Virus record (IMG/VR): IMGVR_UViG_3300042475_003078
Direction: 5' to 3' (one strand)
Source of the DNA: an uncultured virus (IMG/VR IMGVR_UViG_3300042475_003078)
Lineage: Duplodnaviria; Heunggongvirae; Uroviricota; Caudoviricetes
Length of the DNA stretch: 20,000 bases
The notes under the pieces: model-generated
Database searches by the model: none
Seen by the model: the letters and a program-made list of their open reading frames with translations, nothing else
What the model was told of the DNA's origin: nothing
Part shown: positions 1,785-15,212 of the stretch, piece after piece
Layout of the letters: each line of letters begins with the position of its first letter
Position numbering within the stretch: position 1 is the stretch's first letter
Made by a program: the position numbers and the translations under genes

Positions 1785-1946
1785 ATGAAGTGTGGTACAA
1801 AGAAGATGGCATACGGCGGTATGGCAACGCCTATGCAGCCTAAGAAGCCTATGGCTATGATGGCCAAGGGTGGTGTTACACCCGCCGCCCCTCGGGTGGC
1901 GAATTGCGGTGCTTCAATGAAGCCTCAACAACAAAGGAAGAAGTGA
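1785..1946 (+). CDS. Small basic protein (53 aa) with two xAxGG motifs
   Basis: AGGAG RBS at 1775-1779, ATG 1785; MKCGTKKMAYGGMA...MAKGGV...QQQRKK. This is the real part of track ORF 1503..1946. Confidence 0.8.
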   Translation: MKCGTKKMAYGGMATPMQPKKPMAMMAKGGVTPAAPRVANCGASMKPQQQRKK

Positions 1947-1947
1947 A

Positions 1948-2571
1948 ATGGCTACGTTCAAGGAAGCGTTTAGAGAAGCCAGAAACGCTGGCAAGAAGAC
2001 GTTTACATGGCAAGGTAATAAATACACCACTGAGTTGAAGGAAGAGGCTGCTACAAGGGCTCCTAAAGCCTCTGCTGGCCCTCGTCGTACAGCAAAGGAA
2101 GACACAGGTTCTGATGCAATGCTTCAACGTATGAAGTCTCGTTCAGAGCGTGGTATGAGAGTACGTAGTAATGAAGAGATGCGTGATAGATATCGAGACG
2201 AAGCTATTGGCTACGGCACCGCCGCTGCTGGATTAGCTACAGGCCCTCTTCGTGCTTTGTCGGGAGCAGCAGCTAAGAAGTCATCTGATAGAATGACAGA
2301 TGAGCTTAAGAAGCGCATGTCGCGTGAAGAACCTAAAGGCGATGTTGGTGTTGAAATTAAACCTGCTGTGTTTAGACGTCTTAGAGAAGAAGCCAAAGAC
2401 CCTCTTGAAGGTCGTCGTGTTGGCGATGTGTCTAAGGAGTTGAAGGAGCAGGCTAAGAGAGAAGCTGAGAGAGCCGCTACAAAGCGTGCAACACAGTTTA
2501 GAAGCCGCACTGCCGATAGAATGGATGGCTTTGCCAAAGGTGGTTTGGCTAAGAAGAAAAGGAAGAAATAA
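1948..2571 (+). CDS. Basic phage protein (207 aa), putative internal virion protein
   Basis: N-terminal FKEAFREARNAGKKTFTWQGNKYTT motif; C-terminal FAKGGLAKKKRKK; function inferred. Confidence 0.8.
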   Translation: MATFKEAFREARNAGKKTFTWQGNKYTTELKEEAATRAPKASAGPRRTAKEDTGSDAMLQRMKSRSERGMRVRSNEEMRDRYRDEAIGYGTAAAGLATGPLRALSGAAAKKSSDRMTDELKKRMSREEPKGDVGVEIKPAVFRRLREEAKDPLEGRRVGDVSKELKEQAKREAERAATKRATQFRSRTADRMDGFAKGGLAKKKRKK

Positions 2572-2741
2572 TGCCTGCAAAGAAGTTTATGCCTTGTGAA
2601 GATTGTCCCAACCCTGCTGCTTGCAAGAAAGCAGGGAAGTGCATGATGACGTCTAGCAAGGCTAAGAAGCCTCAACGAGGCGGTAAGCAATCCTTAGCCA
2701 TTATGGTGGCTGTTGGTGTGCCTAAGAAGGGAAAGAAGTAA
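2571..2741 (+). CDS. Small Cys-rich basic protein (56 aa), not in the ORF track
   Basis: MPAKKFMPCEDCPNPAACKKAGKCMMTSSKAKKPQRGGKQSLAIMVAVGVPKKGKK fills the gap exactly with TAATG overlaps at both ends; C-x2-C-x5-C-x5-C. Confidence 0.85.
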   Translation: MPAKKFMPCEDCPNPAACKKAGKCMMTSSKAKKPQRGGKQSLAIMVAVGVPKKGKK

Positions 2742-3283
2742 TGGCTACGAAGAATCCTGTCAAAAAGGCTAAGGAAAAGTTGAAGGAGTCTGCGGCGGGT
2801 TCTGGTAAGCGTTTCGGTGAAGAGAAGCCTGTTCAACGTAACGTTAGAAGCAAAGGCCCTAAGCCCAATCGCTCTCCTGATGAAAGCAATGCCAACAGAT
2901 GGGCTGCTGATGTTAAAGAAGACGTTGTCAAGTCGCAGAAGACAGACATTGAGAGACTTCGTAAAGGCATCAGCGGTAAGGCCAAGGAAGGTCTTACACA
3001 GGCCCAGGCAGACTTTGGTAGAAAGCAGACAAAGGCATCGGCTGTTAGAGGTGCTCTTCGTACTGCCAGTAGATTAGGCTATCTTGGTGGCGCTGCTGGT
3101 GCAGGCTATCTTGCTGGAGACACTGCTAAGCAGCTTTATGACAACGCTAAAGAAGGCAGGCAGCGTCGTCGTATGCAAGAGGAATATGAAAAAGATTTGG
3201 ACAAGCAACGTGACATCATGGACAGAGAAGATGTCATTGGCCTGCGTAAAGGCGGCATGGTAAAGAAGGGAAAGAAGTAATGG
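2724..3283 (+). repeat. 21-nt direct repeat AAGAAGGGAAAGAAGTAATGG at 2724-2744 and 3263-3283
   Basis: Identical copies bracket gene 2741..3280; each encodes KKGKK-stop plus the next start codon. Confidence 0.9.
2741..3280 (+). CDS. Basic phage protein (179 aa), putative internal virion protein
   Basis: Coupled ORF; Gly/Ala-rich segment LGYLGGAAGAGYLAG; C-terminal LRKGGMVKKGKK. Confidence 0.8.
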   Translation: MATKNPVKKAKEKLKESAAGSGKRFGEEKPVQRNVRSKGPKPNRSPDESNANRWAADVKEDVVKSQKTDIERLRKGISGKAKEGLTQAQADFGRKQTKASAVRGALRTASRLGYLGGAAGAGYLAGDTAKQLYDNAKEGRQRRRMQEEYEKDLDKQRDIMDREDVIGLRKGGMVKKGKK

Positions 3284-3639
3284 AAACAGCATCGAAGAAG
3301 AAGCCGGTGAAGCAGCCGTCAAAGACAAAGCCTACAAAGGCTGAGAAGCCTGTCTACACCTTTGACGACACGAAGAACAACACCTCCAGCAAAGCTGCTA
3401 AGGAAGCCATTAGAGAGCTTCGTGATGCAGAGATGCGTCGTAAGATGGGTGAGCGCTATGACGAAATCGTAGGCAAGCCTGAGATGGCTAAGGGTGGTGC
3501 TGTTCAGAAGAAGATGTCTAAGGTGATGGGTGAGTACAAAGCAGGAACGCTTCGTAGTGGCGGTACAGGCAAGGCTGTGAAGAACCCCAAGCAAGCCGTT
3601 GCCATTGGGTTGTCTGAAGCTCGTCGTCTGAAGAAATAA
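3280..3639 (+). CDS. Basic phage protein with C-terminal DUF6496-like domain (119 aa)
   Basis: KVMGEYKAGTLRSG...VKNPKQAVAIGLSEARR motif, directly preceded by MAKGGAV. Confidence 0.85.
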   Translation: METASKKKPVKQPSKTKPTKAEKPVYTFDDTKNNTSSKAAKEAIRELRDAEMRRKMGERYDEIVGKPEMAKGGAVQKKMSKVMGEYKAGTLRSGGTGKAVKNPKQAVAIGLSEARRLKK

Positions 3640-5788: not shown

Positions 5789-6337
5789 GTGGCATCAAAT
5801 GATAGAGATTTAGGCGCTTGGATTCTTCCACAACCGATACGATATGAACGTTATGTGGCTATTCCCAGAATTGTTCAAAGCAACGTTGTTCCTTTTGGTT
5901 ATAGAATCGATGATGAAGACCCCTCACTTCTACAGCCAATCACTAAAGAGTTGGATGCGCTTGAGCTTGCAAAGGAGTATGTAAAACGATATTCTTACAG
6001 AAATGTAGCAGCGTGGCTGTCTAAAGAAACCGGAAGGAGCATATCTGCTAATGGACTTAGACACAGAATCAACACAGAAATTGACGCAAGAAAGCGCTAT
6101 AAGTTTTATAGAGCCCTTGCAAGAAAGTACAAAGAAGCCCTCAAGAAGGCCAAAGAGTACGAAGAAAGACTCGGGAAGACAGAAAAGACAGAGTTCTTCG
6201 AAACCGGAATCTACACCGAAATTAGTAGAGACTGGGATGCAGAACTACAAAGTGAGCATACCGGAGGAGATGCAAAACGAAAACATCGTTTTTCAGCCAA
6301 ATCCAGGACCACAAACGGCATTTTTAGCAGCACCTGA
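5789..6337 (+). CDS. Putative DNA-binding protein with recombinase-domain-like PFGY/HTH segment
   Basis: VPFGYRID...SYRNVAAWLSKETGRSISANGLRHRI; GTG start uncertain; 3' end overlaps terL exon 1. Confidence 0.7.
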   Translation: MASNDRDLGAWILPQPIRYERYVAIPRIVQSNVVPFGYRIDDEDPSLLQPITKELDALELAKEYVKRYSYRNVAAWLSKETGRSISANGLRHRINTEIDARKRYKFYRALARKYKEALKKAKEYEERLGKTEKTEFFETGIYTEISRDWDAELQSEHTGGDAKRKHRFSAKSRTTNGIFSST

Positions 6338-6371
6338 AAGGGAAGTTCTCTTCGGAGGAGCTGCCGGTGGT
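6051..6371 (+). CDS. terL: Terminase large subunit, exon 1 (in-frame start may be 6051, 6237 or 6270)
   Basis: FQPNPGPQTAFLAAPEREVLFGGAAGG is the Q motif plus first part of Walker A; continues as GKS at 7224. Confidence 0.9.
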
Positions 6372-7223
6372 AGAGGTCAAGGCCTTTCTCTTGCCACCTT
6401 TCATTGGTAACAATGTCAAAATAAACTTCGTGAATTGCTGGAACGTTTTGTAACGTGACCGTGCTACAGCATAACCGGCGACGGTAGGTGCGAATGCTAG
6501 AAAAACGATCACCAGAAACTATCAGCAGCCAAGCAAGTCATTGACTTGAAGGTTCAGAGACTATCCCGTAAGGGAGTACACCGAAAGGTGGAAGCGCGAA
6601 GCCCCTGTAAAGGGTGAAGATATAGTCCGAGGCGCACTAACCAGCTATAAGCTGAAGGAGCATACATGACACAGTATTGCCTATATAAAGCCACATCTCC
6701 GTCTGGAAAAGTCTATGTTGGTATCACCAACAATTTCAAACGAAGAATGAAAGAACACCGAACCAGCAAGTATCCATTTGGTGCTGCTCTTAGAAAATAC
6801 GGAATAGATTCTTTTGTTTTTGAGTTTGAGTTGTTTGAGTGTGTGGAAGATGCTTTAGCAAGAGAGCAAGAATTAGCTAACTTAGACACCTTGGACAAAG
6901 AAAAGATGTACAACATCAGCGTCGGTGGGGTATTTGCGAATGTCCTAAAAGATCAAAATCCGATGAAAAACAAAGATGTTGTTGACAAACATCCTAATGT
7001 ATGGAGAAAAGGCAGTAAAAACAATCCTATATTGAACCCTGAGATTAAAGAAAAAATGATTAAGTCTCAGAAGTGTAAAAAGGTATCAATAGATGGTGTT
7101 ATTTACTACGGCGTTAGGGAAGCAGCAAGGCAGTTGAGCATATCTAGGCAGTTGGTTGTCTATAGACTCAAAGCCAAGAGCTTCGATACGTGGTTTTATG
7201 TGAAAGAACAATAGTGCGCCTCG
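6372..7223 (+). ncRNA. Group I intron (IA2-like, 852 nt) in terL
   Basis: P1 GGTGGT(6366-6371)/GCCACC(6393-6398) with U.G at the splice site; P AATTGCTGGAA 6433-6443; Q ATCAGCAGCC 6521-6530; R GTTCAGAGACTA 6552-6563; S AAGATATAGTCC 6617-6628; P3 6426-6432/6595-6601; P7.1 and P7.2 hairpins; terminal G7223; removal restores GGAAGG-GKS in frame. Confidence 0.96.
6666..7214 (+). CDS. Intron-encoded GIY-YIG homing endonuclease
   Basis: YCLYKATSPSGKVYVGITNNFKRRMKEH...AREQELA..MYN nuclease motif; C-terminal NUMOD1-like IDGVIYYGVREAARQL; RBS AAGGAG 6655-6660. Confidence 0.92.
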   Translation: MTQYCLYKATSPSGKVYVGITNNFKRRMKEHRTSKYPFGAALRKYGIDSFVFEFELFECVEDALAREQELANLDTLDKEKMYNISVGGVFANVLKDQNPMKNKDVVDKHPNVWRKGSKNNPILNPEIKEKMIKSQKCKKVSIDGVIYYGVREAARQLSISRQLVVYRLKAKSFDTWFYVKEQ

Positions 7224-8522
7224 GGAAAAAGTTACGCAATCTTAGCTGACCCATTACGTTACATCTCTCATCCGCAGTTTTCAGGGCTTCTGTTGCGTCA
7301 TACAACAGAAGAACTAAGAGAACTCATCTGGAAAAGCCAAGAACTCTACCCAAAAATCATTCCAGGTATTGTTTGGAGTGAGAGAAAGATGCAATGGGTG
7401 TCGCCAAGTGGTGGCAGATTGTGGATGTCATACCTCGATAGAGACGAAGACGTTCTTAGATATCAGGGTTTGAGCTTCGTTTGGGTTGGTTTTGACGAAC
7501 TCAGCCAATGGTCTACGCCTTTTGCGTGGAACTATATGCGTTCTCGCCTCAGAACAGCAGCGTCTGACCTGCCTGTTTACATGAGAGCAACGACTAACCC
7601 AGGCAATGCTGGTCATGGGTGGGTTAAGAAGATGTTCATTGACCCTGCACCACCTGGTCAAGCCTTCTGGGCAACAGACATTGACACTGGTGAAGTGTTA
7701 CGTTACCCCAAAGGACACAGCAAAGAAGGTCTGCCGTTGTTTAAGCGGCGTTTCATCCCTTCAAGACTCTCTGACAACCCCTATCTTGCTGCCTCAGGCG
7801 ACTACGAAACCATGTTGTTGTCGCTTCCGGAGCAACAACGTCGTCAACTTCTTGATGGTGACTGGGATGTTGCTGAAGGTGCCGCGTTTCCTGAGTTTAA
7901 GAGAAGCGTTCATGTCGTTGATTCCTATGACATTCCTCATGATTGGCCTAGATTTAGAGCCTGTGACTACGGATATGGAAGCTGGTCTGCTGTTTTGTGG
8001 TTTGCTGTAGCCCCAGATGAGTCATTAGTGGTATATAGAGAGCTATATGTCACTAAAGTGCTTGCAGAAGACTTGGCAGAGATGGTGTTGAACGCTGAAG
8101 ACGGTGAAAAGATACGTTATGGTGTTCTAGACAGCTCTACATGGCATAAAAGAGGCGACACAGGCCCTTCCATTGCTGAAAGAATGATAATGAAGGGGTG
8201 TCGTTGGCGTCCTTCTGACAGAAGTGCTGGTAGTAGAGTGTCTGGTAAGAACGAAATACATAGACGTCTTCAGATAGATTCCTTCACAGAGCGTCCGCGT
8301 ATTGTCTTTTTCAGCAACTGTGTTAAAACTATTGCTGAACTACCAACAATACCTCTAGATAAGAAGAATCCAGAGGACATTGACACCAACATCAACTTTG
8401 ATCACGGATATGACGCATTGAGATATGGTGTAATGTCAAGACCGAGGAGTAAAAACATCTTTGACACTAATACATCGGGGCAGAGCGGCTTCGCTCCAGC
8501 ATCGAAAGTTTTTGGATACTAG
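7224..8522 (+). CDS. terL: Terminase large subunit, exon 2
   Basis: GKSYAILADPLRY; Walker B VGFDE; motif III ATTNPG; nuclease acidic motifs ACDYG and DHGYDALRY. Confidence 0.96.
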   Translation, partial: GKSYAILADPLRYISHPQFSGLLLRHTTEELRELIWKSQELYPKIIPGIVWSERKMQWVSPSGGRLWMSYLDRDEDVLRYQGLSFVWVGFDELSQWSTPFAWNYMRSRLRTAASDLPVYMRATTNPGNAGHGWVKKMFIDPAPPGQAFWATDIDTGEVLRYPKGHSKEGLPLFKRRFIPSRLSDNPYLAASGDYETMLLSLPEQQRRQLLDGDWDVAEGAAFPEFKRSVHVVDSYDIPHDWPRFRACDYGYGSWSAVLWFAVAPDESLVVYRELYVTKVLAEDLAEMVLNAEDGEKIRYGVLDSSTWHKRGDTGPSIAERMIMKGCRWRPSDRSAGSRVSGKNEIHRRLQIDSFTERPRIVFFSNCVKTIAELPTIPLDKKNPEDIDTNINFDHGYDALRYGVMSRPRSKNIFDTNTSGQSGFAPASKVFGY

Positions 8523-8528
8523 GACACT

Positions 8529-10649
8529 ATGGCAAAAAACATCGACACACCCTTCACTGACGACAAAGCCATTGGCTTGCCTGACAGCACTGATGCTGTT
8601 CAGGACACATTCAAGCCTACAACGCTGGCCCGTCACATTGAAGAGCGCTTTCAGCGTTCTAAGACGGCTCGTCGCTTTGATGAAGAGCGTTGGTTGCGTG
8701 CCTATACCAACTACAGAGGCATCTATGGTCCTGACACCAAGTTCACTGAAGCAGAGAAGAGCCGTGTCTTCCTCAAGATTACGAAGGTAAAGACTCTGGC
8801 AGCATACGGACAAATCACCGAGGTGCTGCTGGCTAACAACAGCTTCCCATTGTCTGTAGAGCCTACAACGCTGCCAGAAGGCGTTGCAGAGCACGTTCAC
8901 ATTGACACCAACCCCCAGGCTGCACAAGGCCAACAAAGCGCTCCTGAGCCCGATTTAGGGGCTCTGTTTGGCTATAAGGGAGACGGCAAAGAGCTTCCTC
9001 CTGGTGCAACCCCACAGAGCCTTATGGAGCGTCTTGGTCCTCTGAAGCAATCGCTTGAGGGCTTGGATGTCAAGGAAGGGGCAGGACAGACACCAACCTC
9101 CATCACCTTCAGCCCTGCAATGGTAGCGGCTAAGAAGATGGAGAAGAAGATTAAGGACCAGCTTGAGGAGAGCGGTGCCAGCAAGCATCTGCGTGCTACA
9201 GCGTTTGAAATGGCGCTGTTTGGTACAGGTGTTATGAAAGGCCCCTTTGCTGTAGACAAAGAATATCCCAAGTGGAACACTGATGGTGGCTATGAACCCA
9301 TCATCAAAACCATGCCGCAGACGTCTCATGTCAGCATATTCAATAGCTATCCTGATCCAGATGCTACCAACATGGACGAATGCGGCTACTTTATCGAGCG
9401 TCACAAGCTGAGTAAGTCTCAGTTGTTAGCTCTAAAGAAGCGTCCAATGTTCCGTAACAAAGTCATTGACAACCTCATTAACGAAGGGCCTAATTACATC
9501 AAAGAATGGTGGGAAGACGATCTCAATGACTATTCTCCCGTTGCTGAAGTGGAACGATGGGAAGTGTTGGAGTTTTGGGGCTCTGTTGATGTTGAGATGT
9601 TGGAAGAGAACGACATTGATGTTCCCAAGGAATTGAAGGACGCTGTCGAAGTTCAAGCCAACATCTGGTATAGCCAAGGCAAGGTGATCAGGCTTGTCAT
9701 CAATCCGTTCAAGCCTGCCCGCATTCCCTACTATGCTGTGCCATATGAACTCAATCCATACTCGTTCTTTGGCGTTGGTGTTGCTGAGAACATGGACGAT
9801 AGTCAGACGCTGATGAATGGCTTCATGAGGTTGGCTGTGGACAATGCTGTGCTGTCTGGCAATCTGGTGCTGGAGGTGGACGAGACCAACCTTGTGCCCG
9901 GCCAAGACCTCACTGTATATCCAGGTAAGGTGTTCCGTCGTCAAGGCGGTGCTCCAGGTCAAGCCATCTTCGGAACACAGTTTCCTAACGTAGCTGCTCA
10001 AAACCTGCAACTGTTTGATAAGGCTCGTGTTTTAGCTGATGAGTCAACAGGATTGCCTTCGTTTGCACACGGACAAACTGGTGTCTCTGGTGTTGGTAGA
10101 ACAGCCTCTGGCATCTCTATGTTGATGTCTGCTGCAAGTGGCAGCATCAAGACAGTGATTAAGAACGTTGATGACTATCTGCTGCGTCCGTTGGGTGAGT
10201 CCTTCTTCGCCTTCAACATGCAGTTTGACCCTACGCCGGATATTGTTGGTGATCTTGAGGTGAAGGCACGGGGAACGGAATCGCTTCTAGCTAATGAGGT
10301 CAGAAGTCAACGTCTGCTTCAGTTCTTGCAAGTGGTGCAGAACCCCATCCTTGCTCCCTTTGCCAAGTTCCCCTACATCGTCAGAGAAATTGCTAAAGCT
10401 ATGGATTTGGACCCTGACTTGGTGTCTAACAACATGGACGAGGCGGCTAAGCAAGCCTTTATTCTTCAGAAGATGAACCCGCCTGCACCGTCGGCTCAAC
10501 AGGCTCCAGCAGCGGGTGGTGGCGCTCCTCCGCCGTCTGACATGACAGGTGGGGGTGGTGGCAACATTGGTGTTGGTGCTGCTGCTACACCGGGTGAACA
10601 AGGCTTTAGCGCTGCTCCTGCGTCTCCCACAATGGGAGCACCTCAGTGA
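8529..10649 (+). CDS. Portal (head-tail connector) protein
   Basis: 706 aa directly after terL; LFGTGVMKGP, YPDPDA, FFGVGVAE and RTASGISML motifs of podovirus-type portals; low-complexity C-terminal tail. Confidence 0.92.
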   Translation: MAKNIDTPFTDDKAIGLPDSTDAVQDTFKPTTLARHIEERFQRSKTARRFDEERWLRAYTNYRGIYGPDTKFTEAEKSRVFLKITKVKTLAAYGQITEVLLANNSFPLSVEPTTLPEGVAEHVHIDTNPQAAQGQQSAPEPDLGALFGYKGDGKELPPGATPQSLMERLGPLKQSLEGLDVKEGAGQTPTSITFSPAMVAAKKMEKKIKDQLEESGASKHLRATAFEMALFGTGVMKGPFAVDKEYPKWNTDGGYEPIIKTMPQTSHVSIFNSYPDPDATNMDECGYFIERHKLSKSQLLALKKRPMFRNKVIDNLINEGPNYIKEWWEDDLNDYSPVAEVERWEVLEFWGSVDVEMLEENDIDVPKELKDAVEVQANIWYSQGKVIRLVINPFKPARIPYYAVPYELNPYSFFGVGVAENMDDSQTLMNGFMRLAVDNAVLSGNLVLEVDETNLVPGQDLTVYPGKVFRRQGGAPGQAIFGTQFPNVAAQNLQLFDKARVLADESTGLPSFAHGQTGVSGVGRTASGISMLMSAASGSIKTVIKNVDDYLLRPLGESFFAFNMQFDPTPDIVGDLEVKARGTESLLANEVRSQRLLQFLQVVQNPILAPFAKFPYIVREIAKAMDLDPDLVSNNMDEAAKQAFILQKMNPPAPSAQQAPAAGGGAPPPSDMTGGGGGNIGVGAAATPGEQGFSAAPASPTMGAPQ

Positions 10650-10873
10650 CAACACCAGAAAAGCCGTGGCTTAAGAAGCTAACACGTATGACTGATACGC
10701 AGATGTGGGAAGCGTTTGACGACATGTTGAACTATTCCATTAGTCTGCAACATAAGAAGATGGAACAAAGTCATGAGCCTGTTGACATCTACAGAGCACA
10801 AGGCTTTATTCAAGCTCTCAAGCAGCTTAAGTATTTGAAGGAAGAGATACAACATGCTCAAACGCAGAAATAG
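10646..10873 (+). CDS. Small helical protein downstream of portal (75 aa)
   Basis: GTGA overlap with portal stop; IYRAQGFIQALKQLKYLKEEI motif typical of the small post-portal gene. Confidence 0.8.
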   Translation: MTTPEKPWLKKLTRMTDTQMWEAFDDMLNYSISLQHKKMEQSHEPVDIYRAQGFIQALKQLKYLKEEIQHAQTQK

Positions 10874-12077
10874 CATCCCAGGCTTCCAAGAAGGAGGCAT
10901 GAACGTCGATCCTGTCAGCGGCAACGAAGTGCCTGTCGGCTCTCTTCCTGAGGAAGTCAGGGATGACGTAGACGCTAAGCTGTCGCCAGGCGAGTTTGTT
11001 ATTCCCGCTGATGTCGTTCGCTTCATCGGACTAGAGCGTTTAATGAAGATGCGTGATGAAGCCAAGAAAGGCATTCAACGCATGACTGACATTGGTCAGA
11101 TGGGTAATGCTGATGAAGTTGGTGAAGAGTCCAACAGCACCTATGAAGACGATGGCTTTGAGAGTGAGATTGATGACATCCTCGGTGAAGTGGAAAACGA
11201 GAACAACGGCGGTGATGTCGATGATCAGATGAAGATGGCCTTTGGCGGCTATGTCGGCAGCGGCACAGACTTGTCCAAGGCTCCTAAGAATCCTGCCTTT
11301 GATGTTCGCTATTACAAGAACAAAGAAGGTGCCACGATGTTCATTACGCACATCAATGGTAAGCCTATGACGCCTATTCCTGAAGGCTTCACTGCTGTGT
11401 CGTCTGAAGAGGCTATGAAGGTTGGTTCTGCTGCTGATGAGGAGAAGAAGAAGGCAGCAACAGGAAGTGCTGCAGATCAAGGCGGCTATGACGCTTCTCA
11501 GCTTGATCCTGCTGTGGCTAAGTTCTTAGAGAATGAAACACCAGCAGAGCGTGATGCGCGTATGGGAAGAGTTAGTAAAAACATTGAGCGAATCACAGGA
11601 GCGCTTCCTTTCGTTGGCGCTGCTAAGAAGGCTTTTGAATTCTTTAAGGGACCACAACGTACTGATGAAGAAGCTGCAAGAATCCCAGAAGAAACAAGAA
11701 CACCAGGGCTTCCTTTCAACGAACAACAATCTATTGTTAGCACTGTATATAGTGCTGTACAAAATGCAGGTGTTGTTAACGATGAGATTGCAAGAAAAGC
11801 AGCTTCTAGGGTTCTTTCAGACGTTAATTCTGGTGTTGATATTAACACAGCAACAAATAAAGCTGTCGTTGAAGCACAGGCAAGACAAGACATGATTGAT
11901 AGAGAAGGTGGGGGTACTGAAAGCATTGTTGGTACTCCGGAATCAACACCAGACCCTTTCTCTGCTTCTTTTGATGGTCGAGCTGGTCCTTTTGGAGCAG
12001 CCAAAGGCGGCTTAGTAGCAAAGCGCCAATACCCTACCAAGAAAAAGAAAGGCAAAGGCATCGCTGCTTCTAAATAA
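10854..12077 (+). CDS. Uncharacterised head-module protein (407 aa) with DDVxAxLSxGEFVIPA domain and three xxxGG motifs
   Basis: GAAGGA RBS upstream; FQEGG, DDVDAKLSPGEFVIPADVVRFIG, MAFGGYV, AAKGGLV and Lys-rich tail; lies between portal and scaffold. Confidence 0.85.
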   Translation: MLKRRNSIPGFQEGGMNVDPVSGNEVPVGSLPEEVRDDVDAKLSPGEFVIPADVVRFIGLERLMKMRDEAKKGIQRMTDIGQMGNADEVGEESNSTYEDDGFESEIDDILGEVENENNGGDVDDQMKMAFGGYVGSGTDLSKAPKNPAFDVRYYKNKEGATMFITHINGKPMTPIPEGFTAVSSEEAMKVGSAADEEKKKAATGSAADQGGYDASQLDPAVAKFLENETPAERDARMGRVSKNIERITGALPFVGAAKKAFEFFKGPQRTDEEAARIPEETRTPGLPFNEQQSIVSTVYSAVQNAGVVNDEIARKAASRVLSDVNSGVDINTATNKAVVEAQARQDMIDREGGGTESIVGTPESTPDPFSASFDGRAGPFGAAKGGLVAKRQYPTKKKKGKGIAASK

Positions 12078-12198: not shown

Positions 12199-13074
12199 AT
12201 GTCTACAGAAGTTGTTATCCCTCAGACGGTTAAAGTGGCCCCATTTTCTATGCGGCGTAATACACACGAAGACCGCATCAAGAAAGATGAAGAAGAGCTT
12301 GAAGCGCTTCAGAAGCAATATGCAACAGAAGAAACAACCAAGGTTGTTGCTGCTACAGATGAAGACGGAGAAGAGCCTACATCGGCTGAAGAAAAGACAT
12401 TCAAGAAGCGCTATGGCGATCTGAGGCGTCATTCACAGAAACAACAGACAGAGCTTCAGACTCAGATTGATGAGCTTAGAAAGCAACTGGAAGCAACAAC
12501 AAAGAAGGAAATCAAGCTGCCTAAGAGCGAAGCAGAACTCAGTGCTTGGGCAGAGCAATATCCTGATGTCTACAAAATTGTAGAAACCATTGCCATCAAG
12601 AAGGCTAAGGAAACATCAAGCTCGTTAGAAGAACGGATGCGTAAAGTTGATGAGATGGAACATCAAGCTCAGCGACAAAAGGCTGAAGCAGAACTAGTAC
12701 GTCTGCATCCAGACTTCGACACCATCCGCGAAGACGATGAATTCCATAATTGGGTAGAAGAACAACCAAAGTGGGTGCAGCAGGCTCTGTATGAGAACGA
12801 CAACGATGCCAAGGCTGCGGCACGCGCTATCGATCTGTACAAGGCTGATAAGGGCATTGCCAAGGCTAAGAAGGCCGATAGTAGAGGCGCAGCTATGGCT
12901 GTCAACACACGCGCTGGTAAAACTGCACCAACTACGGAAGCGTCTGATGGAGTGATTTACGAAAGTCAAATCCAGAAGATGAATGACAAAGAGTTTGAAG
13001 CCAACATGGAAAAGATTGAAATGGCACGCAGAGCAGGCAAGATTGTCTATGACATGAGTGGCGGCGCTCGGTGA
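12199..13074 (+). CDS. Capsid scaffolding protein
   Basis: Acidic coiled-coil protein before MCP; FKKRYGDLRRH, HPDFDTIREDDEFHNW, and C-terminal IEMARRAGKI; RBS TAAGGA. Confidence 0.88.
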   Translation: MSTEVVIPQTVKVAPFSMRRNTHEDRIKKDEEELEALQKQYATEETTKVVAATDEDGEEPTSAEEKTFKKRYGDLRRHSQKQQTELQTQIDELRKQLEATTKKEIKLPKSEAELSAWAEQYPDVYKIVETIAIKKAKETSSSLEERMRKVDEMEHQAQRQKAEAELVRLHPDFDTIREDDEFHNWVEEQPKWVQQALYENDNDAKAAARAIDLYKADKGIAKAKKADSRGAAMAVNTRAGKTAPTTEASDGVIYESQIQKMNDKEFEANMEKIEMARRAGKIVYDMSGGAR

Positions 13075-13304: not shown

Positions 13305-13591
13305 ATGGCGTTTGCATCAGCTTCGGGCTATACAAGCCTCCAAAATGGTAATTGGTCGCCAATTATCTACAGTAAAAAAGTACAACTCGCGTTTAGGAAA
13401 TCTTCGGTCGCCCAAGCGATCACCAACTCCGAATATTTCGGAGAAATCTCCAGCATGGGCGATGCAGTCCGCATCGTTAAGGAGCCTGAGGTCAGCGTGC
13501 AGGCTTATGCTCGCGGTACTCAGATCACGGCTCAAGACCTTGATGACAGCGATTTCACGCTGGTTGTCGATAAGGCCAACTACTTCGCGTT
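13305..13591 (+). CDS. Major capsid protein, exon 1
   Basis: Strong RBS TAAGGAG; NWSPIIYSKKVQLAFRK...YFGEISSMGDAVRIVKEP...VDKANYFAF; ends within the Phe codon. Confidence 0.93.
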
Positions 13592-13666
13592 TAACACTAA
13601 CAGACGCATTTGAGAGTAATCTCATCTAAATAACTGGGTGAATTGCTGGAAAACCTAAATAAAGTG

Positions 13667-13718
13667 TTGACAACTACTTCGATCATGATATACCATCGAC
13701 ATAACCGATGGGGGTCAT
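13667..13718 (+). promoter_or_regulatory. Candidate intron-internal promoter and RBS-sequestering hairpin
   Basis: TTGACA 13667-13672, 18 nt, TACCAT 13691-13696; pairings CCATCG/CGATGG (13693-13698/13706-13711) and ATGAT/GTCAT (13685-13689/13714-13718) bracket GGGGG 13710-13714. Confidence 0.55.
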
Positions 13719-14237
13719 ATGAAGAAGTGTTCCAAGTGTAAAGAAGAAAAAGAACTAAGCGAGTTTCCAAAAACCAAGACAAACAAAGACGGCTACTCTT
13801 ATCTATGCTTCCCTTGTAACAGGGAAACTTCTAGAAGATACAGACAAGAAAACTCTGAAACCTACTACAGGAATCAGAAACAAAAGAGACAAGAAGAGCC
13901 GACGTTTGTAGCACAACTCTTGTACGCAACTAAAACAAGAGCACAGAAGAAGAAGTTAGATCACACACTGACTTTTGACTTCTTGCTAAAGTTGCTAAAA
14001 GAATCAGAATACAAGTGTGCTGTAACAGGTCTTGAAATGAATCTCAAAACAGATTCTAGGAAAAAAGCTAATTTGTTTAAGTGCTCCTTAGATAGAATTG
14101 ACTCTACTAAGGGATACACTGAAGACAACGTTCAATTTGTCTGCTGGGCTGTGAACCAGATGAAAGCAGACAAAACAGAAGATGAATTAAAGTTTTGGAC
14201 AGAAACACTTTACAAGGCAATCAGCAGCCAAGCATAG
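13719..14237 (+). CDS. Intron-encoded HNH-like (beta-beta-alpha-Me) endonuclease with N-terminal Zn finger
   Basis: KKCSKC...LCFPC Zn finger; CAVTG...SLDRIDSTKGYTEDNVQFVCWAVNQMK nuclease motif. Confidence 0.88.
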   Translation: MKKCSKCKEEKELSEFPKTKTNKDGYSYLCFPCNRETSRRYRQENSETYYRNQKQKRQEEPTFVAQLLYATKTRAQKKKLDHTLTFDFLLKLLKESEYKCAVTGLEMNLKTDSRKKANLFKCSLDRIDSTKGYTEDNVQFVCWAVNQMKADKTEDELKFWTETLYKAISSQA

Positions 14238-14428
14238 ACCGAAAGGTCTTTGAAGGTTCAACGACTAGGATATACCGCCCTACGGGGAGATGAAATCCAT
14301 ACGCTCAAGTGAGCGGAAGCGCCCAGCCCCTGATAAGTCAGGGTGATGATATAGTCTACTCTGCATTGAAAAATGCAGCAGCTTGAATAAAGCGGGTAAG
14401 GATTAACGACCCTTGCTGAATATAAAGG

Positions 14429-15212
14429 TAAAGTTGACGACATCGAAGCAACTCAGTCGCACATCAATTGGATGTCTTTGGCATCTGATCGTGCTGCCTA
14501 TCGCTTGAAGGACCAGTTCGACCAAGACGTTCTCGGCTACCTCGCTGGTTATCAACAGTCTGTGTTGCATGGCAGCGCCGACACCGCCCGCACTACCTTC
14601 CCTGGTACGAAGGCTGTTTCGACTGCTGGTAACGACGAACTGCTGACGTCGATGAAGCTCATCAAGGGCTCGTTTGGCAACATCACCACTGTTAGTGCTG
14701 GTGACCACTCTGTTCCCATTGCAGCGCGTCTGCCTGGTGCTACGGCTCTGTCTACGTCGGTGGTGTCGCCGTTGATGATCATTGCTCGTATGTCGCGTCT
14801 GTTGGATCAGCAAAACGTTGACACCACTGGTCGTTGGCTTGTGGTTGATCCGGTGTTCGTTGAAGTGCTGAAGGACGAAGACAGCCGTCTTCTGAATGCA
14901 GACTTCGGTGGCTCTGGTCTGCAAAACGGTCTTCTGTTGAACAACCTGCACGGCTTCAAGGTCTATGTCAGCAACAACCTGCCGAAGGTTGGTACTGGCC
15001 CGGGCACGACAGGCACGGCTAACCAGAACACCGATTTCGGTGTCATCGTTGCCGGTCACGACAACGCTGTTGCTTCTGCTGAGCAGATCAACAAGACTGA
15101 GACCTATCGCGATCCGGACTCGTTTGCTGACATTGTGCGTGGTATGCACCTCTATGGCCGAAAAATTCTCAGAAGTGAGGCCATTACCACCTGCAAGTAC
15201 AACGTGGCCTAA
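14429..15212 (+). CDS. Major capsid protein, exon 2 (spliced product 356 aa)
   Basis: KVDDIEATQSHINW...LDQQNVDTTGRWLVVDP...GFKVYVSNNLP...SFADIVRGMHLYGRKILR motifs of HK97-fold coat proteins. Confidence 0.95.

Follow-up and report, generated by a model that had tools for sequence, protein, structure and literature searches.

A Cassette Resembling the C-Terminal Region of Tape-Measure Proteins in the Product of a Portal-Adjacent Gene of an HMO-2011-Type Podovirus

Packaged phage proteins and the locus under study

Tape-measure proteins (TMPs) are themselves ejected and form a channel, according to the accessible text of published work. In maps of lambda, Douge, and JBD30, as far as the available parts of the three reports go, the visible part of the TMP is confined to its last 30-40 residues, bound in the hub (PMC12617516, PMC13033339, PMC11445458). 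The lambda TMP, gpH, loses approximately 14 kDa from its Gly-rich C-terminal region in a cleavage known since 1974, and the accessible text of the 2025 Ur-lambda paper gives both the site and the catalyst as unknown (PMC12617516). The subject of this report is a 407-residue protein encoded at 10854-12077 (plus strand, as are all features given below with coordinates and a strand) of a 20,000-nucleotide stretch of DNA from an uncultured virus (IMG/VR IMGVR_UViG_3300042475_003078; hereafter the window), together with a short GG-SxGEFV-helix-GG cassette near its N-terminus. The window derives from an HMO-2011-type marine podovirus: its portal protein shares 66.5% identity with the portal of Puniceispirillum phage HMO-2011 and 54-70% with those of CRP roseophages. 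The relatives are HMO-2011-type podoviruses with T7-like tubular tail genes, and phages of this type are among the most abundant in the sea.

Iyer et al. 2017 argue, in the available text, that polyvalent proteins are carried in the virion and injected (PMC5512222). Genes for polyvalent and MuF-type effectors lie right after the portal gene, which is also the position of the target gene, among virion genes near the portal and terminase. Polyvalent proteins carry several effector or LPD domains per chain, whereas the target lacks any Pfam domain; 7 of 10 longer homologues scanned have one. SPP1 gp7 and Mu F occupy the same post-portal slot, but the module of the target is of the TMP type rather than MuF, and no Phage_Mu_F domain was found in the target at Pfam E≤0.01 or in its residues 1-95 at E≤10.

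Ejection as cargo is proven for the crAss001 protein gp45, which binds the portal wing through residues 425-552, according to the part of the report available (PMC10172136). This protein (cargo protein 1; PF25725; L089:11988-14513) was nearest in a protein-atlas feature search with a score of 0.85, which serves as a lead only. It contains xxGG motifs, an LVEQGEVVY stretch, and a C-terminal tail ending in KKAKGGKVRTKKKKGLTYG that resembles the tail of the target. Homology was rejected, as PF25725 is matched by 0 of 75 family members at E≤10. In hhalign comparisons, 12 crAss C1 domains (a set widened with nine diverse copies from phage records and two from viral contigs) aligned to the profile of HMO-type proteins at Prob 0.95%, and a mixed module profile aligned to gp45 at Prob 0.11%.

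The cassette and its tape-measure counterparts

The cassette opens with FQEGG (residues 11-15), followed after a gap of 21 residues by DDVDAKLSPGEFVIPADVV (residues 37-55; 10962-11018), and the translation of the 10854-12077 open reading frame (ORF) agrees here in every particular with the initial annotation, which was made from the letters alone. That annotation also pointed to a similar FAxGG...DSIPAxLSxGEFV arrangement in cis in many TMPs, and profile comparison bears this out. An HMO-only profile (residues 1-135; 68 of 75 rows used) and a TMP-only profile (10 TMP modules) aligned over residues 36-68, a span of 33 columns, with Prob 95.9% and E 5.2e-9 in hhalign. The sole PHROG match of the target is the tape-measure family phrog_37649 (E 1.6e-4), in which residues 22-83 match profile positions 1889-1953 of 2006. 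At the level of sequence profiles, then, the module is homologous to the TMP module. When the whole-family alignment was compared with the single lambda gpH sequence, the match was weak (Prob 0.58%, E 0.1); the profile-profile test with 10 TMPs is taken as the valid one.

Lambda gpH contains FHFATGGFTGTGGKYEPAGIVHRGEFVFTKEATSRIGVGNLYRLMRGYATGGYVG at residues 731-784, including VHRGEFV; the region comparable to the target spans approximately residues 733-784, and the TMP form of the module was located at 736-784. A mixed 12-row profile detects two copies in the TMP (gp16) of mycobacteriophage Douge at E 4e-7; Douge is absent from this profile, whereas lambda is inside it by construction. The TMP of Rhodococcus phage MacGully (gp48) contains YATGGYVRGPGGPTDDAIDARLSNGEFVMRAEAVKRIGVDKLNQMN...YADGGT between its rod and its M23/transglycosylase-like lytic part. 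Compared with 50,697 phage records, the MacGully module finds a match in 655, and among the matches listed, 36 of 45 are in annotated TMPs. The module ends approximately 64-93 residues from the C-terminus in seven TMPs, those of lambda and of Burkholderia, Paracoccus, Pseudomonas, Acinetobacter, Dinoroseobacter, and Salmonella phages, and lies further inside the chain in three actinophage TMPs. All 10 aligned TMPs have a GG motif directly before the module and eight have a strict GG motif downstream; the equivalents of D37 and S44 are each kept in nine, and that of E47 in all 10. A single chain, the metagenomic protein P0323, combines one copy of the HMO type with one of the TMP type.

The target and the C-terminal region of TMPs share the core motif, the helix that follows it, and the flanking hydrophobic-xx-GG-hydrophobic motifs, and both proteins are expected to exit the virion before the DNA. 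They differ in the GG-to-Glu spacing, which is 31-37 residues in the target type and 21 in TMPs, with GPGTxTSD in TMPs corresponding to DPVSGNEVPxGS in the target type. Assignment of the target as a TMP was rejected despite the presence of the cassette. A TMP has a long helical ruler and, in a long-tailed phage, a gene that follows frameshifted chaperones in the tail module. The protein has only 407 residues, podovirus relatives, and no TMP Pfam match, and its gene occupies a portal/scaffold-like slot; its lack of a long coiled-coil ruler, its portal-side gene, its N-terminal cassette, and its altered spacing all argue that it is not a TMP.

The module block is the most conserved part of the family. 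Alignments divide the protein into three conserved parts (residues 10-86, residues 98-180, and the C-terminal tail) and a variable middle. The domain had initially been placed at 10854..11090, an extent with an arbitrary end, as the conserved block reaches residue 86 (11111). The pattern goes beyond chance. Residues G23, N24, V26, P27, E34, V35, D37, D38, S44, G46, E47, F48, A52, V54, R56, G59, L60, M64, R67, A70, and G73 are invariant in 123 aligned homologues. Among 8000 scored candidates of similar length, 2054 are homologues at E≤1e-3, and there are 842 longer homologues. Residues 8-95 alone match 3030 clusters at E≤1e-3 and 2490 at E≤1e-10 in a representative library of 1.84 billion proteins. 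With the target as query, tblastn gives matches solely in HMO-2011-type phages, covering the N-terminal 16-51% of the protein. The core motif is present in 348 of 356 stored homologues, and within these 348, the hydrophobic-xx-GG-hydrophobic motif lies 31-45 residues before Glu47 in 324 (at 31, 32, or 37 residues in 318 of them), a downstream GG motif lies 38-113 residues past Glu47 in 321, and a GG motif occurs in the last 40 residues in 222.

The conserved cassette, found approximately 65-95 residues from the C-terminus in many TMPs, consists of four elements: a hydrophobic-x-x-G-G-hydrophobic motif, a strand-like D-x-[IV]-x-A-x-L-S-x-G-E-F-V-hydrophobic-P segment, an amphipathic helix, and a second GG motif. 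The upstream motif of the target, FQEGGM (residues 11-16; 10884..10901), has a G15 that is invariant or nearly so. The core module (residues 34-68, EVRDDVDAKLSPGEFVIPADVVRFIGLERLMKMRD; 10953..11057) holds invariant columns and is predicted to run extended into the beginning of a helix. The amphipathic helix (residues 52-81) and a conserved GQMGNA turn (residues 81-86) occupy 11007..11111, with invariant residues between R56 and A86 and with helices at 52-58 and 60-81 in the AlphaFold2 model (pLDDT 67-76). The second GG motif, MAFGGY (residues 128-133; 11235..11252), follows an acidic helix at residues 100-117 and has conserved A129, G131, and G132.

The conserved stretch at residues 98-180 takes in the acidic helix and MAxGGF. 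It also includes most of a small beta domain, at residues 143-182 (11280..11399; APKNPxFDVRYYKN...INGKPMTPIP), in which A143-P147, D150, R152, Y153, and N168-P171 are invariant and for which no fold match exceeded Z 3.5. A third GG motif, AAKGGL (residues 382-387), opens a conserved Lys-rich C-terminal tail (residues 383-407, AKGGLVAKRQYPTKKKKGKGIAASK; 12000..12074) with the family consensus AKGGLVxKRQYPxKKKRGKGIAAxK, in which A383, G385, G386, V388, P394, K401, and G402 are at least 90% conserved. The two GG motifs that the initial annotation saw after FQEGG are thus MAFGGY and AAKGGL. Its description of the remainder as largely low-complexity is partly right, but residues 98-180 are conserved and include a predicted beta domain at 149-182 (pLDDT approximately 80).

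The AlphaFold2 model, built from 123 sequences, has a mean pLDDT of 62. Helices are predicted at residues 52-81 and 100-117 and strands at 149-155, 161-167, and 180-182, the strands at pLDDT approximately 80, while the motif itself is coil (pLDDT approximately 56-65). There is no globular N-domain, and residues 14-16 of the FQEGG region fall below pLDDT 50. The target has no Pfam match (E≤0.01 for the whole protein; E≤10 for residues 1-95) and no NCBIfam match, and a PDB sequence search with the whole-family profile returned only low-complexity noise. The automatic label "Arc/MetJ-type ribbon-helix-helix transcriptional regulator", applied by one source to many homologues including P0001 and P0010, receives no support from Pfam scans. 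No description of the motif was found among the matches listed by a text search of the accessible literature.

It is possible, and tentatively favored here, that the 407-residue protein is a packaged and ejected virion-internal protein with a TMP-C-type docking or processing cassette. The homology to TMPs, the cargo domains of homologues, the post-portal gene slot, and the ejection of TMPs themselves argue for this reading, and from them we infer presence in the virion, ejection, docking, and an absence of catalysis. In a podovirus, the protein would correspond to the C-terminal end of a siphophage TMP, and its kinship with the TMP cassette would then extend to docking in the channel. The cassette may serve for docking or gating in the portal-tail lumen and take up its fold only once confined to the portal-tail channel or part of an oligomer, and the prediction of no globular fold fits a segment that folds upon binding. 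It would keep the protein and any fused cargo poised for ejection, with the GG motifs acting as hinges or processing points at the module borders and the Lys-rich GG tail lying with the DNA.

A Pfam domain, of a kind typical of polyvalent proteins, was found in 7 of 10 longer homologues scanned. ART-PolyVal, Phage_lysozyme2 with LysM, and RTX repeats scored above the Pfam cut-off, and LPD23 (24.2-24.6 bits) and some L5-gp82 matches fell just under a 27-bit cut-off. The cargo domains lie N-terminal of the GG-GG-module block, and GG motifs mark the borders between cargo and module (ART, lysozyme, L5-gp82-like). Both this architecture and the cargo fusions are established. In Rhizobium phage gp086, the module is at the C-terminus and the gene lies beside that of a tail-lysozyme protein; Bacillus phage Dartukuta gp56 and Pseudomonas phage USP_18 gp30 have two tandem module copies, and their genes precede giant genes. 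These carriers are counted in favor of an ejected-protein context. Minimal natural versions of 185-205 residues (P0311 and P0329) consist of GG motifs, module, and GG tail, with the beta domain also present in P0311, and are likewise counted for the favored reading.

Several points weigh against this reading. No binding partner of the module was identified, and no virion proteomics for HMO-2011-type phages was found in the accessible literature. The module is N-terminal in the target and near the C-terminus in TMPs. The strict conservation of D37, S44, and E47 looks as much like that of an active site as that of a binding surface. Lambda gpH, the sole well-studied carrier, is cleaved near the module by a catalyst that is unknown in the accessible text (PMC12617516). 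Additionally, crAss001 gp45, with the only solved portal-binding cargo domain (PF25725), shows no detectable kinship to the module.

The cassette, which appears to be widespread among ejected phage proteins, has no name of its own, and no phage structure shows it. It lies outside every Pfam family and, in the accessible text of the map reports, outside the TMP residues seen in lambda, Douge, and JBD30. It is common, with 3030 HMO-type protein clusters and a TMP form in 655 cultured phage genomes, and it would join two classes of ejected protein, tape measures and podovirus internal proteins. For marine virology, it offers a first clue to the function of a core gene that lacks annotation in HMO-2011-type phages, and to their odd Lys/Met/Gly-rich small proteins. 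In lambda gpH, it falls within the stretch where, by the available account, the cleavage is unmapped (PMC12617516), which makes an old question testable with a few point mutants.

Possible proteolysis and processing at the GG motifs

The initial annotation placed the module in a "prohead-protease slot" and proposed that it binds or cleaves xAxGG peptides, in cis on its own chain and in trans on small proteins encoded upstream. No peptidase family was matched: the target has no peptidase match in Pfam, PHROGs, or NCBIfam, and 0 of 75 homologues match a peptidase family at E≤10. Consistent with the initial statement that the window contains no recognizable maturation protease, none was recognized in the 27 window ORFs scanned at the Pfam and PHROG level. 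Among 47 of the 74 HMO-2011 proteins (the hypothetical and structural ones), no peptidase scored above threshold; the sole peptidase name was Peptidase_S28 for gp48 (E 0.0067, 15.7 bits against a 25-bit cut-off), and the 60-residue HMO-2011 "protease" gp04 has no family match. Fold searches with the low-confidence AlphaFold2 model (mean pLDDT 62) gave a best Foldseek E of 0.41 and a best VIA Z of 3.5, values which, with so uncertain a model, do not exclude a protease fold. With no family match, a best fold Z of 3.5, and a motif predicted as coil, protease identity is not upheld.

HK97-type proteases (S78/U35) and ClpP/S49-type proteases resemble the target only in map position between the portal gene and a scaffold-like gene. 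The target has no family match to these types or to the T4 S77 prohead protease, no globular domain in the model, and catalytic candidates that vary in distant copies. The argument from the gene slot is weak as well, because the HMO-2011 coat protein is annotated as P22-coat-like and a P22-coat-like head would need no prohead protease; P22-like and T7-like heads mature without one.

The initial annotation named the conserved Asp, Ser, and Glu as candidate catalytic residues. D37, S44, and E47 are indeed invariant within HMO-type proteins, but at the position of Ser44 lambda has His, the Rhizobium phage has Asn, and copy 1 of Dartukuta and USP_18 has Pro, together with Ser in place of Glu47. 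The initial interpretation is partly supported, in that the small domain and the xAxGG-type motif accompany each other in cis in this family and in TMPs. A protease or reader role of the module is putative, with the trans-reader part unlikely, and more so than the cis-processing part.

In its cis form, the proposal holds that the module, probably once oligomerized in the channel, either cuts its own chain or directs the cut, at the GG motifs on both sides; cargo and end pieces would thereby be freed, and this would be the activity that converts lambda gpH to gpH*. This is an unlikely explanation on the whole, if one with several features in its favor. The GG motifs keep fixed spacing around the module in HMO-type proteins (324 upstream and 321 downstream of 348); in the 10 aligned TMPs they directly precede it in all 10 and, in strict form, follow it in 8. 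They also occur at the borders between cargo domains and module. The D, S, and E residues are well conserved, the MacGully cassette separates the rod from the M23/transglycosylase-like part, and no other protease was found among the 47 HMO-2011 proteins scanned. The loss of approximately 14 kDa from lambda gpH, reported in the accessible text of PMC12617516, compares with 12.1-12.5 kDa calculated for the C-terminal piece left by a cut at G736-G737. However, the module has no similarity to any peptidase family or fold, its conserved core spans only about 33 residues and is predicted to be unstructured, and the Ser44 and Glu47 equivalents are replaced (by H/N/P and S) in distant copies. In T5 pb2, the reported cut after R1127 (PMC10038345, available text) lies two residues before a GG rather than after it, and T5 has no detectable module at E≤1.

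A bolder form of this proposal joins the two phage groups: the GG-SxGEFV-helix-GG cassette would process itself once the chain has assembled in the tail or portal channel, account for the conversion of gpH to gpH*, trim GG-tagged internal proteins, and free injected cargo in the protease-less HMO-2011-type podoviruses. It is held to be rather unlikely.

Alternatively, the GG motifs may be sites for a different protease, either from the host or a phage JAB/NlpC-type enzyme like lambda gpK, with the module positioning the chain; this is regarded as improbable. JAB enzymes cut after Gly-Gly, and the hydrophobic-x-G-G↓x pattern may resemble the sites of the adenovirus protease adenain, with the consensus (M/L/I)XGG↓X. 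A clan CE cysteine protease, which an adenain-type processing system includes, was not found in the 27 window ORFs or the 47 HMO-2011 proteins. Lambda gpK (gene K, L138:877-1473) has an NlpC/P60 domain (E 3e-13) and matches the C-terminal end of a Prok-JAB domain below the Pfam cut-off (E 6e-5; 23.3 bits against 25). It is an evident candidate for the cleavage of gpH next to FATGG, a link not found in the literature consulted. The accessible report states that gpK is needed for tail assembly and is absent from virions (PMC10721106), and a 1973 title in the reference list of the T5 paper concerns host involvement in T5 tail-protein cleavage. Against a separate enzyme, the window ORFs and the 47 HMO-2011 proteins contain no JAB, NlpC, or cysteine-protease family, and three proteins from directly behind the MacGully TMP gene gave one match to Sipho_Gp37, none for the other two, and none to a peptidase family.

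T5 pb2 offers a look-alike of the cassette. Its cut after R1127 is given as FVPR↓AEGGMMYPGVSYQMGEHGTEVVTP, and its HGTE region is called a "zinc carboxypeptidase motif" in a metallopeptidase for which muralytic activity is claimed, according to the available text (PMC10038345). In the T5 sequence (L088, residues 1120-1150), the cut lies 2 residues before the GG of EGGMM and 19 before the Glu of HGTE, and the motif looks like a variant of the TMP pattern GG ... xGE-hydrophobic-V-x-P. No match to the module profile was found in T5 at E≤1; T5 is therefore considered a resemblance only.

This resemblance bears on a further explanation, in which the motif acts on the cell wall once ejected, by binding or cutting peptidoglycan, the role claimed for the "zinc carboxypeptidase motif" of T5 pb2. 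The GG ... HxxE-hydrophobic-V ... P arrangement of pb2C, the VHRGEFV of lambda, and the frequent position of the module next to lytic domains speak for it. Most copies, however, have Ser rather than His, which leaves no HxxE metal site; T5 lacks detectable homology, the module matches no lytic family in Pfam, and the Ur-lambda paper, in its accessible text, states that lambda virions lack such an enzyme (PMC12617516). A role of the motif in the cell wall is accordingly held to be highly doubtful.

GG-tailed small proteins and neighboring genes

Upstream of the target, at 1785..3639 (plus strand), lies a series of genes whose translations are small, basic, and marked by [FMY]-A-K-G-G-hydrophobic motifs and Lys-rich tails. 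Its members are at 1785-1946 (with MAYGGM and MAKGGV), 1948-2571 (ending in FAKGGLAKKKRKK), 2571-2741, 2741-3280 (ending in LRKGGMVKKGKK), and 3280-3639 (with MAKGGA). HMO-2011 gp67 and gp68 carry GG motifs as well. Strand comparison was performed on the window and 79 related viral contigs with all ORFs of at least 40 residues, spurious ones included. A GG motif lies within 25 residues of the ORF end in 111 of 2367 ORFs on the coding strand and in 14 of 3174 on the opposite strand, and motif density per 1000 residues is 1.62 against 0.21, an approximately 8-fold difference. The GG tag is a real, enriched feature of HMO-2011-type phages.

Two tiny Met/Lys/Gly-rich families recur in this region (1785-1946 and 2571-2741 in the window) and in many related loci. 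The first ends in ...NCGASMKPQQRKK after YAKGGM-type motifs. The second begins with a Cys-rich stretch (CxxCxxxxxCKxxGKC), contains a hydrophobic AIMIGM patch, and finishes in MNKGGMAKKGKC.

GG tails also occur outside this lineage. T7 gp6.7 (L139:365-628), labeled "injected" in the T7 record, ends in SAFGGKK, and T7 gp7.3 has ARAGGKK. Both are small, basic, ejected head proteins that resemble the GG-tailed small proteins of the window, at the motif level only. A GG motif with a Lys-rich tail may mark internal or ejected proteins more generally, those of unrelated podoviruses included. The module is absent from the T7 and crAss001 genomes at E≤1 in a profile search.

A trans-reader explanation would have the module bind the small basic proteins by their GG tails, along with the C-terminal tail of its own chain, and so recruit them into the capsid. 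The module and GG-tailed small proteins do occur together in the window, in HMO-2011 (gp49 with gp67 and gp68), and in 79 related loci; the family's two conserved ends are an N-terminal module and a C-terminal GG tail. However, the co-occurrence of module and GG tails is confined to one phage lineage and so is not independent evidence, and T7 gp6.7 (AFGGKK end) and crAss001 gp45 have GG tails in genomes without the module. HMO-2011 gp49 lacks the C-terminal tail, and the lambda GG motifs examined are all within gpH. A BLASTP comparison of 13 window proteins with 356 module proteins found no fusion at E≤1e-3, so that the small proteins of the window are unfused to module proteins, and AlphaFold2 predicts no contact-like order for the FQEGG in cis (pLDDT below 50 at residues 14-16). 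A trans reader is very improbable on this evidence.

The portal protein (8529..10649, plus strand) matches PF23899 SU10_portal (E 6e-21) and phrog_332 (E 2e-79) and adjoins the target gene in every related locus examined. A 75-residue helical ORF (10646..10873, plus strand) overlaps both the portal stop and the start of the target gene; it has a weak match to phrog_19882 (E 0.004) and is conserved as HMO-2011 gp50. The target gene (10854..12077, taken from the ORF list) is the orthologue of HMO-2011 gp49, a 762-residue "hypothetical" protein, by position and N-terminal similarity. It is followed by a gene for a 291-residue acidic, scaffold-like protein (12199..13074, plus strand), the orthologue of HMO-2011 gp48. 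The initial description of a gene between portal and scaffold is therefore secure for the portal (PF23899), but the "scaffold" is assigned from position alone, as its match, phrog_13678 (E 7e-61), is of unknown function. The local order is the C-terminal part of the large terminase, portal, 75-residue ORF, 407-residue gene, 291-residue acidic protein, and a split major head gene.

The large terminase gene looks interrupted (6051-8522). A 119-residue ORF at 6051-6410 weakly matches positions 110-177 of the TerL PHROG, and 7293-8522 encodes the rest; a GIY-YIG/I-TevI-type homing endonuclease gene (6666-7214) lies between the two pieces. The major head protein (13305-15212) is likewise in two pieces, 13305-13613 and 14472-15212, both matching phrog_267, with an HNH/endonuclease VII-like gene (13719-14237) between them. 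The split of the major head gene is probably an intron or intein-free insertion. Neither the terminase nor the major head interruption has a group I intron match in Rfam at gathering score, and Rfam and tRNA scans of the whole window gave no matches.

A 92-residue protein at 1134-1412 matches phrog_7595 (E 5e-39) and is conserved as HMO-2011 gp69. A further match is to phrog_220, "minor head protein and DNA pilot", at positions 534-604 (E 8.5e-5), as if a domain that elsewhere forms part of large pilot proteins stood here on its own.

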